A DNA stretch of 10,805 nt, taken from the UHGV virus genome UHGV-0174159. One strand, given 5' to 3'. The DNA comes from a virus. The position numbers and the translations under genes are program-made. This document shows positions 1,140 through 8,544 of this stretch, piece after piece; the stretch's first letter is position 1, and the number at the start of each line of letters is the position of its first letter. Below the pieces are notes generated by a model. It made no database searches, was not told the origin of the DNA, and saw nothing but the letters and a program-made list of their open reading frames with translations.

Positions 1140-1639
1140 GTAGCACAATTCCTAAGGGTTACGTAATTGATGTCACTACCTGGGAAAATGATGGTGATAA
1201 CTATAAAACCAAAACACTGTTTGGCGTAGAAGAGCATGAGCTCCAACAGTTTAAATATCTCTTAAAGAAGTTTAAGAGTCGTCATTCTAGTACCAAAGCT
1301 GAACATTATTGTGGTAATACACTATTCAGCGATTGCTCATCTATTATCTATGAATACTTGGTTGAAGGACTGTTCTCTGATCAGCTCACCCCGGAATTCA
1401 TTAAAAAGGTCTTTGATATTGAAGTTGACCTTGGTGATAAATCTGAAGAAGACGAAGCCCGCGTATTCGACTTGTTCCATGAGAATGGATATTTGGTATC
1501 AGAAGGTCTCATTAATATTCTTGGTTATGCTTCTGAATACTATGATTACTATTTCTTGCGTGTAGTTGAACGTGTTGAATTCGCTTATATTGAAGAAGAA
1601 ATCGTTTTGCCAACTGTTAAAATGATTGATTTGCTTTAA
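1124..1639 (+). CDS. hypothetical acidic protein (171 aa)
   Basis: ATG at 1124 preceded by GGTGAG; overlaps the upstream gene by 16 nt; ORF track. Confidence 0.6.
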   Translation: MYIRLGSTIPKGYVIDVTTWENDGDNYKTKTLFGVEEHELQQFKYLLKKFKSRHSSTKAEHYCGNTLFSDCSSIIYEYLVEGLFSDQLTPEFIKKVFDIEVDLGDKSEEDEARVFDLFHENGYLVSEGLINILGYASEYYDYYFLRVVERVEFAYIEEEIVLPTVKMIDLL

Positions 1640-1725
1640 GAAATATTTGTTATTATTAACTCATACCGCACTGATTAATACCCTCTATCATCAAGGGTTC
1701 TTGTTTGAGAGCCTTTGTTAATAAT

Positions 1726-1798
1726 TGGGAATTAGCCAAGTTGGTAAGGCACTGGATTTTGATTCCAGGATGCAAAGGTTCGAGTCCTTTATTCCCAG
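1726..1798 (+). tRNA. tRNA-Gln (anticodon TTG), CCA not encoded
   Basis: Acceptor TGGGAAT/ATTCCCA; anticodon stem CTGGA/TCCAG with loop TTTTGAT; T-arm AAAGG-TTCGAGT-CCTTT. Folded by hand. Confidence 0.85.
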
Positions 1799-1799
1799 C

Positions 1800-1886
1800 G
1801 CGAGAATGGTCAAATTGGTAAAGGCACAGCACTTAAAATGCTGCGGAATGATTTCCTTGTGGGTTCGAGTCCCACTTCTCGCACCA
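1800..1886 (+). tRNA. tRNA-Leu (anticodon TAA), type II with long variable arm, CCA encoded
   Basis: Acceptor GCGAGAA/TTCTCGC; anticodon loop CTTAAAA between CAGCA/TGCTG; T-arm GTGGG-TTCGAGT-CCCAC; 3' ACCA. Confidence 0.85.
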
Positions 1887-1891
1887 AATTT

Positions 1892-1965
<74 letters not shown>

Positions 1966-1975
1966 ATTTAATTTA

Positions 1976-2049
1976 CTCCGTGTAGCTCAGTTTAGTAGAG
2001 CGTCTGCTTTGGGAGCAGAATGTCGTAGGTTCAAATCCTGCCACGGAGA
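1976..2049 (+). tRNA. tRNA-Pro (anticodon TGG), CCA not encoded
   Basis: Acceptor CTCCGTG/CACGGAG; anticodon stem TCTGC/GCAGA with loop TTTGGGA; T-loop TTCAAAT. Confidence 0.8.
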
Positions 2050-2051
2050 CT

Positions 2052-2141
2052 GGAGGCGTGGCAGAGTGGTTTAATGCACCGGTCTTGAAAACCGGCAGTC
2101 GCTCCGGCGACTCATAGGTTCAAATCCTATCGCCTCCGCCA
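2052..2141 (+). tRNA. tRNA-Ser (anticodon TGA), type II, CCA encoded
   Basis: Acceptor GGAGGCG/CGCCTCC; anticodon stem CCGGT/ACCGG with loop CTTGAAA; long variable arm; T-loop TTCAAAT; 3' GCCA. Confidence 0.85.
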
Positions 2142-2146
2142 GGTTT

Positions 2147-2222
2147 GCTGATTTAGCTCAGTAGGTAGAGCAACTCACTTGTAATGAGAAGGTCGGCGGT
2201 TCGATTCCGTCAATCAGCACCA
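2147..2222 (+). tRNA. tRNA-Thr (anticodon TGT)
   Basis: Acceptor GCTGATT/AATCAGC; anticodon loop CTTGTAA; T-loop TTCGATT; 3' ACCA. Confidence 0.8.
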
Positions 2223-2223
2223 A

Positions 2224-2298
2224 GGCCCTGTAGCTGGAAGGTTCAAGCAAGCGACTCATAATCGCCAGATGGTGGTTCAATTCCACCCAGGGCCACCA
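2224..2298 (+). tRNA. tRNA with anticodon CAT (Ile2/lysidine type or Met; Ile in T4)
   Basis: Acceptor GGCCCTG/CAGGGCC; anticodon loop CTCATAA; T-loop TTCAATT; 3' ACCA. Identity beyond the anticodon is inferred from the T4 tRNA set. Confidence 0.75.
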
Positions 2299-2307
2299 AA
2301 TTAATTA

Positions 2308-2394
2308 GGGGAGTTATCCCGTAGAGGTAGCGGTGTGGACTGTAAATCCATTGTCATTGCGACTCGGGTGGTTCGACTCTATCACTCCCCACCA
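2308..2394 (+). tRNA. tRNA-Tyr (anticodon GTA), type II with long variable arm
   Basis: Perfect 7-bp acceptor GGGGAGT/ACTCCCC; anticodon stem GTGGA/TCCAT (one G-U) with loop CTGTAAA; 15-nt variable arm; T-arm GGTGG-TTCGACT-CTATC (two G-U pairs); 3' ACCA. The D-arm pairing is imperfect. Confidence 0.6.
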
Positions 2395-2398
2395 ATTT

Positions 2399-2473
2399 GG
2401 ATGTGTAGCTCAATGGCAGAGCGATCGCCTGTTAAGCGATTGGTTATAGGTTCGAATCCTATCACGTCCGCCA
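2399..2473 (+). tRNA. tRNA-Asn (anticodon GTT)
   Basis: Acceptor GGATGTG/CACGTCC (one G-U); D-stem GCTC/GAGC; anticodon stem ATCGC/GCGAT with loop CTGTTAA; T-arm ATAGG-TTCGAAT-CCTAT; 3' GCCA. Confidence 0.8.
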
Positions 2474-2477
2474 AATC

Positions 2478-2553
2478 CGAGGCATAGCTCAGAAGGAAGA
2501 GCAAGGACCTTCTAAGTCCTGGGTCGTAGGTTCGATCCCTACTGCCTCGACCA
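2478..2553 (+). tRNA. tRNA-Arg (anticodon TCT)
   Basis: Acceptor CGAGGCA/TGCCTCG; D-stem GCTC/GAGC; anticodon stem AGGAC/GTCCT with loop CTTCTAA; T-arm GTAGG-TTCGATC-CCTAC; 3' ACCA. Confidence 0.8.
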
Positions 2554-2868
2554 GACAAGAAGCCGGGTCGCTACCGGCAAGTCGTCGGACTGATGTTCCC
2601 TGTTTAAGGACTGGCATTAATAAATCTTTATGTTTTGTTAATGTCCCCTTATATCACAACAGAAACGGCGCACCGAATTATCGATTCGAGGAAATATCTT
2701 TGCCGTAAGCCGAGTAGCGTTTTTGACGGAACGTTCGGATATGGTCGAGATATGGCCTTTTAAAAATATTGAGTAGCGTCAACTGCTTAATAACCGGGTT
2801 CGAATCCCGGCGTTTCGTACAAACACTTGCCTTAGCAGGTGGAACCCCGACAAGGTTGCCGCAAGGCT
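2554..2868 (+). ncRNA. candidate small stable RNA(s) with tRNA-like elements, positionally analogous to the T4 species 1/2 RNAs
   Basis: No credible ORF; sits between tRNA-Arg and a terminator. Contains a canonical T-arm-like motif CCGGG-TTCGAAT-CCCGG (2794-2810), a GCCGG/CCGGC hairpin near 2563-2579, and direct repeats GAGTAGCGT (2713-2721 and 2771-2779) and GATATGG (2738-2744 and 2748-2754). Exact ends unknown. Confidence 0.3.
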
Positions 2869-2869
2869 T

Positions 2870-2897
2870 AGCCCCAGCCGAAAGGTTGGGGCTTTTT
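2870..2897 (+). terminator. rho-independent terminator (10-bp stem, GAAA tetraloop, T5)
   Basis: AGCCCCAGCC-GAAA-GGTTGGGGCT followed by TTTTT. Confidence 0.8.
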
Positions 2898-2899
2898 AG

Positions 2900-2907
2900 T
2901 ATAAATA
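2900..2907 (+). promoter_or_regulatory. T4 late-promoter motif TATAAATA upstream of the 2944 internal-protein gene
   Basis: Exact TATAAATA 36 nt upstream of the ATG; prohead internal proteins are expected to be late-expressed. Confidence 0.55.
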
Positions 2908-2943
2908 AGTATATTAAAACCACGAATTAAAACAGGAAATAAG

Positions 2944-3417
2944 ATGAAATCATATGCTCAATTTTTAAATGAAGCGGTGTTAAATGAAGCATCTAGCACC
3001 GAAATTCAAGCTGTTGCAAAAGCTGCCATTGCCGCGGGTAAATATTCCTATAAAGATGCTTCCGATGAATCACGATTCCAATTTGCTCGCGACATGAAAG
3101 CAGAAGGATTTACGGGGAATGCTGTTAGTATGGCCTGGAAAAGTTTAGTTGCTACTGGCGCTGCTTTTGCAAAGGCTTCGGGTAAACCTGCTCCTAAAGC
3201 AGATCCTAAAGTCGCACAAGAGAAAAATATTGTTAAAGGAATTATCTCCAAATATGAAGCTATCCTTAAAGAGCTTTTAGTAATCAAAACTGAAGGCCAG
3301 AAACTTGCGCGAGCTCATAGTTTCAAAGATAATCCACATGTTCACTCTCTTGAGTATGTTGAAGACATCCAAAAAATTATCAAAGACCGCATTTGGTCTG
3401 CTAAACAAATCAAATAA
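2944..3417 (+). CDS. internal-protein-like capsid protein with N-terminal capsid-targeting sequence (157 aa)
   Basis: N-terminus MKSYAQFLNE|AVLNE|A resembles the T4 internal-protein CTS (MKTYQEFIAE) with L-x-E prohead-protease motifs; SD AGGA upstream; bracketed by two near-identical terminators. Confidence 0.7.
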   Translation: MKSYAQFLNEAVLNEASSTEIQAVAKAAIAAGKYSYKDASDESRFQFARDMKAEGFTGNAVSMAWKSLVATGAAFAKASGKPAPKADPKVAQEKNIVKGIISKYEAILKELLVIKTEGQKLARAHSFKDNPHVHSLEYVEDIQKIIKDRIWSAKQIK

Positions 3418-8070: not shown

Positions 8071-8116
8071 GTTTACTTCCTCCAAGGACTTTGATACTAT
8101 ACATTCATCAACTACT
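8071..8116 (+). promoter_or_regulatory. T4 early-type promoter cassette, copy 3, upstream of denV
   Basis: GTTTAC 8071-8076 (2 nt after the TAG stop), TACTAT 8095-8100, ATCAACTACT 8107-8116. Confidence 0.6.
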
Positions 8117-8124
8117 TGGAGGAA
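8077..8124 (+). promoter_or_regulatory. 10-bp inverted repeat able to sequester the denV SD, with the promoter -10 in its loop
   Basis: TTCCTCCAAG (8077-8086) is the exact reverse complement of CTTGGAGGAA (8115-8124), which contains the denV SD GGAGG; the 28-nt loop carries TACTAT and the predicted start region. Confidence 0.5.
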
Positions 8125-8127
8125 ATT

Positions 8128-8544
8128 ATGACTCGTATCAATTTAACACTTGTTTCTGAACTGACCGACCAACATCTTATGGCTGAGTATCGTGAATTGC
8201 CGCGTGTTTTTGGTATAGTTCGTAAACATGTGGCAAATGGTAAGCGGGTTAAAGATTTTAAAATATCTTCCGAGTTTATTTTAGGCTCTGGTCATGTTAC
8301 GTTCTTTTACGATAAGTTAGAATTTTTGCGAAAGCGTCAATCAGACATTATAACGGAATGCTTAAAACGTGGGTTTAGTATAAAAGATACTGAAGTTCCT
8401 GACATCAGCGATATTCCAGCAGAATGGAAAAATGATTATAATCCATGCAAATCAGCTATTAAATTGAGTCAACAACGACTCGATGAAAAAATTTTAATGA
8501 AGCCACACTGGTACAAGTATTACGGCAAAAATATTTACATTTAA
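8128..8544 (+). CDS. denV: endonuclease V, pyrimidine-dimer DNA glycosylase/AP lyase
   Basis: Translation [29 protein letters not shown]… closely matches T4 endonuclease V as recalled; N-terminal Thr2 and Glu23 conserved; 138 aa. ORF-track start 8116 is a TTG. Confidence 0.95.

Follow-up and report, generated by a model that had tools for sequence, protein, structure and literature searches.

Genomic context and transcription unit

The window, as we term the whole 10,805-nt stretch of the UHGV virus genome UHGV-0174159 analysed here, carries a T4-like tRNA operon (Tequatrovirus, RB3/RB27/T2L-type), and many Tequatrovirus genomes are 98.5–99.1% identical to its segment 1700–3000. A first-pass annotation made from the sequence alone had marked the interval 2554–2868, directly downstream of the tRNA-Arg gene, as a structured non-coding region and candidate for one or more small stable RNAs. 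The transcription unit to which this interval belongs comprises the following elements:

1629–1656, plus strand: middle-promoter-like site upstream of the operon, consisting of a MotA box ATTTGCTTTA (1629–1638), a 12-bp spacer and the -10 element TATTAT (1651–1656), as read from the sequence
1726–2553, plus strand: ten contiguous tRNA genes (Gln, Leu, Gly, Pro, Ser, Thr, CAU, Tyr, Asn, Arg), located by ARAGORN, Rfam tRNA, the RB27 annotation and PMC2330249
2555–2675, plus strand: orthologue of rnaD (species 2 RNA), located by alignment with the RB27 annotation; 145.3 bits with model R2
2676–2680, plus strand: 5-nt spacer AAUUA between rnaD and rnaC, delimited by alignment with the T4 and RB27 annotations
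2681–2819, plus strand: orthologue of rnaC (species 1 RNA), identical to T4 at 137 of 139 positions and 100% identical to the annotated rnaC of RB3 and RB10; 156.9 bits with model R1
2820–2869, plus strand: conserved 3' trailer of the operon, with small hairpins (2824–2830/2835–2841 and others) predicted by folding
2870–2898, plus strand: intrinsic terminator of the tRNA/rnaD/rnaC transcription unit, with a 10-bp G+C-rich stem (2870–2893) closed by a GAAA loop and followed by TTTTT

The tRNA clusters of T2L, RB1 and RB3 lack the segB homing endonuclease gene (PMC2330249), and the gene set of the window corresponds to this type: the tRNA genes upstream of the interval (Met/Tyr/Asn/Arg, no segB) are arranged as in T2L and RB3, whereas T4 has its own arrangement. 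The MotA-box/-10 consensus of middle promoters is (a/t)(a/t)(a/t)TGCTTtA located 12 ± 1 bp from TAtaaT (PMC2988021), which is matched by ATTTGCTTTA, the 12-bp spacer and TATTAT; no sigma-70-type promoter-like site was found within 1400–3100. In T4, most transcription of the tRNA cluster starts at a middle promoter immediately in front of it, runs through the entire cluster and terminates 3' of the species I RNA gene, and the primary transcript of about 1.75 kb is the precursor of the tRNAs and of the species I and II RNAs (PMC2330249). We infer that transcription of the operon in this phage proceeds from the middle-promoter-like site at 1629–1656.

The strong terminator noted at the end of the interval was found in the 10-bp stem at 2870–2893 and the TTTTT that follows it. 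Trailer and terminator together are identical to T4 at 73 of 79 positions, and according to the T4 annotation the trailer (2820–2869) is absent from the mature rnaC. Folding z-scores relative to shuffled sequences were -2.87 for rnaD, -4.55 for rnaC, -3.53 for the trailer with the terminator, and -5.73 for the whole interval. The region is thus structured beyond chance, as had been supposed, but it is not a single element, being composed of two RNA genes and a 3' trailer.

Identification of the rnaD and rnaC orthologues

A blastn search with 2554–2900 against 50,697 phage records returned matches in 804 of them. The best match was RB27, 99.1% identical over the interval, with rnaC and rnaD annotated beneath the match; in this phage, rnaD ('species II RNA') and rnaC directly follow tRNA-Arg and correspond by alignment to positions 2555–2675 and 2681–2819 of the window. 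The order of genes in the T4 genome (NC_000866) is the same, namely tRNA-Arg, rnaD ('small, stable RNA; species 2 RNA') and rnaC ('species 1 RNA'); a further T4 record, X03016, also carries the 'species 2 RNA' annotation, and in the RB3 record AJ884578 'rnaC: species I RNA' is annotated on a sequence 100% identical to 2681–2819. The ends of rnaD and rnaC given here were transferred from the T4 and RB27 annotations.

The rnaC of T4 (139 nt; NC_000866 70908–71046) has the same length as that of the window, differs from it by two substitutions only, and occupies the same position between rnaD and the trailer and terminator. The rnaD of T4 (119 nt; NC_000866 71053–71171) likewise has the same place after tRNA-Arg and the same overall fold, but here the differences are more numerous and are concentrated in the apical hairpin: the T4 annotation maps to 2555–2674, with 101 of 119 positions identical and three indel columns (about 85% identity). 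The identity to RB27 rnaD is 98.3%, and the gene begins 2 nt after tRNA-Arg.

Judged by these alignments, the rnaD and rnaC of the interval are RNAs that are already known, with annotations in the records of T4, RB3, RB10 and RB27. Species 1 and 2 RNAs of T4 have reportedly been known, and their sequences determined, since the 1970s. The proposal that the region might be analogous to the two stable RNAs of T4 was therefore correct in the stronger sense of direct orthology (RB27, T4 and RB3 annotations; 137/139 identity of rnaC), and its alternative, a novel tRNA-like RNA, is not supported. Both RNAC and RNAD were classed as accumulating late in T4 infection, with a northern blot for RNAC (PMC9697503), and no function is assigned to them in PMC3014915, PMC9697503 or PMC12685909.

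Searches with tRNA, tmRNA and species 1/2 models had been suggested as a check. ARAGORN called neither a tRNA nor a tmRNA in the interval; the species 1 and 2 models matched with the scores listed above. Rfam families gave nothing at gathering thresholds in 2554–2900. At E ≤ 10 only noise was seen, including a weak tRNA-Sec match at 2726–2818 (16.6 bits against a gathering score of 47) and a separate match to the bare T arm. The T4 rnaC and rnaD appear to have no Rfam model. What is added here is a tested secondary structure of rnaC, the range of its family, and the recognition that the locus is widely mis-annotated.

Secondary structure of rnaC

The fold of rnaC was derived from an alignment of 21 distinct sequences that span several genera of the Tevenvirinae and were taken from GenBank phages and IMG/VR homologues, including members of Tequatrovirus, Karamvirus, Kanagawavirus, Winklervirus, Gelderlandvirus and Mosugukvirus, Klebsiella Marfa-like phages, Citrobacter phage Moon, Edwardsiella phage PEi20, and others. 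Within the gene the following elements were recognised:

2682–2688/2811–2817: P1, acceptor-like stem of 7 bp in which the two ends of the RNA pair, with two covarying pairs
2689–2691/2756–2758: P2, a 3-bp helix directly after P1
2695–2752: long irregular arm, P3–P6
2754–2755: GG, elbow candidates
2759–2766: unpaired A-rich linker
2767–2776/2783–2792: P7, a 10-bp hairpin with the conserved loop CGUCAA
2794–2810: T arm, one nt after P7 and without a gap before the 3' strand of P1
2818: unpaired discriminator-like U

The RNAalifold consensus comprises 40 pairs, and a 42-pair version additionally includes two U.U positions. In the 42-pair model, 92.6% of the cells of the 21-sequence alignment are paired, and compensatory changes on both sides were observed in 25 of the 42 pairs. 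None of 500 shuffles reached any of the five measures observed, and sliding the partners by 1–3 columns as a control reduced pairing to 40–52%.

The T arm lies exactly where the first-pass annotation had placed it, with CCGGG at 2794–2798, TTCGAAT at 2799–2805 and CCCGG at 2806–2810. The adjoining CGTTTCG (2811–2817), proposed as a possible acceptor 3' strand, does pair, with CGATTCG at 2682–2688, and this pairing is accompanied by compensatory changes in relatives. P1 and the T arm adjoin without a break, and covariation is seen in both: pair 4:138 of P1 is GC in 12, AU in 8 and GU in one of the 21 sequences, and pair 119:131 of the T stem is GC in 10, UA in 10 and UG in one. Two U.U mismatches in P1 are conserved; in phage PM2 both are replaced by U-A, and pair 2:140 becomes A-U.

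A further contact is suggested by the two G residues preceding the 3' strand of P2. Column 76 (window position 2754) forms GU with T-loop position 2 in 18 sequences and CG in three, the change from G to C occurring exactly in the three sequences in which the T loop UUC... is changed to UGC...; these three sequences come from two genera and possibly represent one event. Column 77 (G2755) and the T-loop C form GC in 21 of 21 sequences. The GG at 2754–2755 thus probably mimics the docking of tRNA G18/G19 on the T loop. The canonical T-loop sequence itself has been lost in Kanagawavirus and Winklervirus (UGCAUGC and UGCAUC).

The annotated 5' end of rnaC, U2681, lies one nt upstream of the 7-bp stem, and at the annotated 3' end, A2819, the stem is followed by 'UA' only, not NCCA. 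In the genomic sequences, P1 is followed by an invariant U and then by ACA (T4-like phages, including the window) or CCA (PM2 and Klebsiella Marfa-like phages).

As for repeats, two direct ones had been proposed, but only a single exact repeat was found, the 9-nt GAGTAGCGT at 2712–2720 and 2771–2779. Its copies lie in the 5' strands of two different hairpins, and its occurrence is near chance (by our estimate, about 0.3 such repeats are expected in 371 nt). An 8-nt complementarity between the 3' end of tRNA-Arg (2546–2553) and rnaC (2742–2749) was also considered and rejected: it is at chance level, with about one inverted 8-mer expected by estimate, and is not preserved in T4, because the acceptor of T4 tRNA-Arg differs.

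Relationship of rnaC to tRNAs and other tRNA-like RNAs

With canonical tRNAs rnaC shares a 7-bp acceptor-type stem that leads straight into a 5-bp T stem with the 7-nt loop UUCGAAU, a probable elbow between GG and the T loop, one unpaired discriminator-like U, and the embedding in tRNA arrays. It differs from them in having no D arm, no anticodon arm and two U.U mismatches in the acceptor stem, in that no CCA is encoded in the window (UACA), and in being neither called by ARAGORN nor scored above the Rfam tRNA thresholds. The fold supported by covariation contains no anticodon arm; the place of the D and anticodon arms is taken by the long irregular arm, the single-stranded A-rich linker and the 10-bp hairpin P7, and rnaC should therefore be unable to decode.

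To read rnaC as a decoding tRNA, one would regard its 3' part of about 94 nt (2726–2819) as a genuine class-II molecule with a long variable arm. Such a reading could draw on the tRNA-Lys, tRNA-Met and tRNA-Phe calls made on the homologous stretch in G4507, PG7 and Pet-CM3-4, on the weak tRNA-Sec match at 2726–2818, and on an alternative 8-bp stem (2726–2733/2811–2818) that is 88% paired across the alignment. However, pair 49:138 of this stem is broken in 10 of the 21 sequences, exactly where column 4 compensates in P1, and its formation would destroy helix P6 with its 4 covarying pairs. Orthologues disagree on the 'anticodon' (Lys, Met or Phe), which is located in the variable linker; ARAGORN calls no tRNA in the interval, the tRNA-Sec score of 16.6 is far from the threshold of 47, and the annotated mature RNA of T4 is 139 nt long, not 94. 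The 94-nt class-II fold was rejected on the basis of the covariation and the clash with P6, and we regard a decoding function of this segment as very improbable.

rnaC also differs from tmRNA, since it has neither a tag ORF nor pseudoknots and ARAGORN finds no tmRNA; the Rfam tmRNA_permuted model matched the 17-nt T arm only (10.1 bits). Rfam Y RNA families had no match in the interval. The tRNA-like domain of tmRNA, the tRNA-like module of the bacterial Y RNA YrlA, the eukaryotic mascRNA and the viral vtRNAs of MHV68 do not decode but retain the acceptor/T-arm/elbow face of tRNA, and are therefore handled by tRNA-processing enzymes. In YrlA, the ends of the RNA form the Ro-binding stem rather than an acceptor stem. 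To our knowledge, none of these four is a sequence relative of rnaC.

The tRNA-like character proposed for the interval resides in rnaC, which carries the T arm. It does not extend to rnaD, which has no tRNA-like end.

Distribution, conservation and mis-annotation of rnaC

Model R1 detected one rnaC per genome, with scores of 112–158 bits. Outside Tequatrovirus, rnaC occurs within tRNA arrays, as in Karamvirus, Kanagawavirus, Proteus phage ABTNLPp2 (Gelderlandvirus), Citrobacter phage Moon, Winklervirus and PM2. In these arrays, a flanking tRNA gene is located 5–6 nt upstream or 6–14 nt downstream of rnaC; in PG7, for example, the array reads Trp, 5 nt, rnaC, 6 nt, Gly. This spacing is as expected for tRNA-like processing. 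No rnaC was found by R1 in Dhakavirus-type loci; there, the 3' trailer known from downstream of rnaC in the window comes immediately after rnaD.

The two RNAs differ strongly in their conservation: identity to the window of at least 99% was found for rnaC in 491 of 746 phage records and for rnaD in only 13 of 735. A scan of 185,579 bacterial and archaeal genomes with the rnaC pattern gave no matches, and none of 5,426 complete E. coli genomes was matched at E ≤ 1 in a blastn search with 2555–2898. On these two null results, the idea that rnaC has its origin or a homologue in the host was rejected. A metagenome scan for new T-loop variants yielded 14 loci, of which 13 were ordinary T4-like copies, and no new elbow variants were present among the 14; the remaining locus, L043, which neither the model search nor ARAGORN recovered, most likely matched the pattern by chance.

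The 3' stretch of rnaC is called tRNA-Lys(ttt) in G4507, tRNA-Met(cat) in PG7 and tRNA-Phe(gaa) in Pet-CM3-4 (ARAGORN/GenBank), and many GenBank records lay a 'hypothetical protein' over the rnaC/rnaD locus. Both the tRNA calls and the 'hypothetical protein' features at the rnaC locus are annotation artefacts. The protein-coding reading would rest on these GenBank features and on an 81-aa ORF on the minus strand (2678–2923), which is open in the window. However, in T4 and most relatives a stop codon interrupts this frame, and it runs antisense through an intrinsic terminator and a covarying RNA. None of the ORFs overlapping the interval (42 aa on the plus strand, 81 aa on the minus strand and 53 aa on the plus strand) had a Pfam match. 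The ORF was rejected because of its interruption in relatives and the lack of a Pfam match; the earlier view that the interval holds no credible ORF stands, and a coding function is extremely improbable.

Structure and variability of rnaD

Two structural elements were delineated in rnaD:

2562–2566/2574–2578: 5' hairpin of 5 bp with the invariant 7-nt loop GUCGCUA
2581–2587/2666–2673: basal stem, invariant, with a variable and replaceable apical hairpin above it

Among 17 distinct rnaD sequences, about 48 nt at the 5' side and about 25 nt at the 3' side are almost invariant, while the apical hairpin exists in at least three unrelated versions among relatives. In the consensus fold 96.8% of cells are paired, and 6 pairs show compensatory change. 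No convincing match to a kink-turn or loop-E motif was recognised by eye in the conserved internal loop (GACUGA/AGAAA). The T arm is confined to rnaC.

Weaker matches to model R2 (16–28 bits) were obtained at the loci of phage Moon, Karamvirus, Marfa-like phages and Kanagawavirus. Since these loci retain the core motifs AAGUCGUCG...UCCCUG...UCACAGC...CGGCGCA with compensatory changes, the rnaD family is probably wider than blastn reveals. An experimental hint of a function comes from the evolution of a T4-like phage on the semi-permissive host ECOR34, during which all lines convergently acquired one and the same SNP in rnaD (PMC12685909).

Possible biogenesis and function

Homology and the literature on T4 suggest that both RNAs would be transcribed within a long tRNA precursor, starting upstream of tRNA-Gln and stopping at 2870–2898, and that rnaD and rnaC would accumulate as stable species late in infection. 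The structure of rnaC suggests that it could be excised in the manner of a tRNA, the acceptor-like stem, T arm and GG elbow together presenting a substrate for RNase P and for 3' trimming enzymes. RNase P is said to cleave the precursor of species 1 RNA, according to work of the 1970s–80s. rnaD is probably freed by the cuts that release tRNA-Arg upstream and rnaC downstream, and the stability of both RNAs may be due to their compact folding. We consider it highly probable that the interval is the 3' end of a T4-type tRNA operon containing orthologues of rnaD and rnaC derived from the tRNA precursor; this confidence covers identity and biogenesis jointly and excludes the function of rnaC. As to its nature, rnaC is most likely a tRNA-shaped, non-decoding RNA released by the tRNA-processing machinery.

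Concerning its function, we tentatively propose, as a possibility short of a probability, that rnaC acts as a non-decoding mimic of tRNA which would occupy or titrate a protein recognising the acceptor, T arm and elbow, and which would confer a host-dependent, non-essential benefit.

One could also hypothesise that rnaC and/or rnaD are trans-acting sRNAs that base-pair with host or phage mRNAs, the tRNA-like end of rnaC serving for excision only. RNAC and RNAD are termed 'small regulatory RNAs' in PMC9697503, both RNAs offer conserved single-stranded segments (the A-rich linker 2759–2766 and the loop CGUCAA in rnaC, and the invariant loop GUCGCUA in rnaD), and the convergent rnaD SNP arose during host adaptation (PMC12685909). 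However, the near-total invariance of rnaC, including its helices, fits a protein-bound shape better than a short seed, and the 5,426 E. coli genomes gave no blastn match, short seeds being able to escape this search. We regard base pairing in trans as rather unlikely.

Neither RNA might have a function in trans, if they were structured spacers or by-products that aid the folding, protection or processing of the precursor, for example as a barrier to 3' exonucleases. This would agree with the location of both RNAs at the 3' end of the operon before the terminator in T4-type genomes, with the absence of rnaC from Dhakavirus, and with the fact that the entire tRNA region is dispensable in the laboratory and non-essential for phage development (PMC2330249). 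It accords poorly with the preservation of the rnaC structure by many compensatory changes in distant genera, where the gene lies in the middle of arrays rather than at their 3' end. In addition, rnaC is far more conserved than the neighbouring sequence, and in T4 it accumulates as a discrete stable RNA (PMC9697503). A role purely in cis or as a by-product is quite improbable.

Returning to rnaC as a tRNA mimic, a more far-reaching version would see it as an active mimic and not a relic, encoded like a tRNA and conserved in many genera of the Tevenvirinae: either a decoy or inhibitor of a host factor recognising the shape of tRNA (a tRNA-targeting defence nuclease, for example), or an RNA to which CCA, and possibly an amino acid, is added for a role outside translation. 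In the same scheme rnaD would be a second, faster-evolving RNA involved in host specificity, as hinted by the convergent SNP on ECOR34. This combination is speculative, and we consider it unlikely.

As discoveries, rnaC and rnaD have no value, since they are the known species 1 and 2 RNAs of T4. They do, at the same time, count among the longest-known non-coding RNAs of phages to which no function is assigned, and because there appears to be no Rfam model, hundreds of T4-like genomes have no annotation at their locus or show a hypothetical protein, a false tRNA-Lys or a false tRNA-Met there. That rnaC occurs in the tRNA arrays of several genera, that it is cleanly missing from Dhakavirus and that rnaD evolves much faster provide testable leads, and the tRNA-like architecture of rnaC suggests concrete mutants and partners with which the role of these RNAs could be tested.

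Transcription unit and the CAT-anticodon tRNA

A perfect MotA-box consensus, ATTTGCTTTA, is located just before tRNA-Gln, 12 bp upstream of TATTAT, and this site (window 1629-1656) is likely the middle promoter of the entire tRNA/rnaD/rnaC unit. Further downstream, a tRNA with the anticodon CAT (2224-2298), labelled Met by ARAGORN, occupies the position of T4 tRNA-Ile; as the two also agree over their first 12 nt and in the anticodon loop (CTCATAA), the tRNA of the window may be an isoleucine tRNA with a modified CAU anticodon instead of a methionine tRNA.

Module-like features of the rnaD/rnaC region

The base of rnaD is invariant, in contrast to its apical hairpin, which occurs in three or more versions that are alike in length but not homologous (window 2601-2650 and the homologous parts of loci L003, L010, L011, L018, and L036 from other phages). 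The apical hairpin looks like a swappable module. In the phages of loci L022, L035, and L036, the 30-nt stretch before rnaD reads ...CATTCACCGGCGCAACAA, in place of tRNA-Arg; this sequence bears a loose resemblance to rnaD's own 3' end (..CGGCGCACC) and may represent either a remnant or a further small RNA.

The 3' trailer and terminator (about 79 nt, window 2820-2898) are nearly invariant across T4-like phages. They lie directly 3' of rnaD at those Dhakavirus loci without rnaC, and behind a different upstream sequence at locus L033. This element behaves as a separate module. With its hairpins and terminator U-tail, it is built like a small RNA derived from a 3' external spacer, for which 3'ETS-leuZ of E. 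coli is the comparison case.

The 3' end of tRNA-Arg (2546-2553, CTCGACCA) shows perfect 8-nt complementarity to rnaC (2742-2749, TGGTCGAG). For so short a match this is at chance level, and T4 does not preserve it. A weak match to the rnaC model at 8215-8308 on the plus strand, within ORF 8116-8544 (18.5 bits, E of about 0.017 by rough calibration), is probably due to chance.

Annotation of rnaC and rnaD and distant homologues of rnaD

The two RNAs are annotated in only a few records (T4, RB3, RB10, RB27, Kha5h, and ATK48), and "hypothetical protein" coding sequences overlap them in many GenBank records. Depending on the phage, the 3' two-thirds of rnaC are called tRNA-Lys, tRNA-Met, or tRNA-Phe.

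Stretches of rnaC called as tRNA
L003 746-839, phage G4507
L004 746-840, phage PG7
L005 746-841, phage Pet-CM3-4

Searches with the rnaD model revealed weak matches, with scores of 16-28 bits, in the tRNA regions of Moon, Karamvirus, Marfa-like, and Kanagawavirus phages.

Weak matches to the rnaD model
L023 790-890, minus strand
L012 6805-6905, plus strand
L014 2278-2372, minus strand
L029 2879-3007, minus strand
L006 363-462, plus strand

The core motifs of rnaD are kept in these matches, with compensatory changes, and the matches suggest undescribed distant homologues of rnaD.
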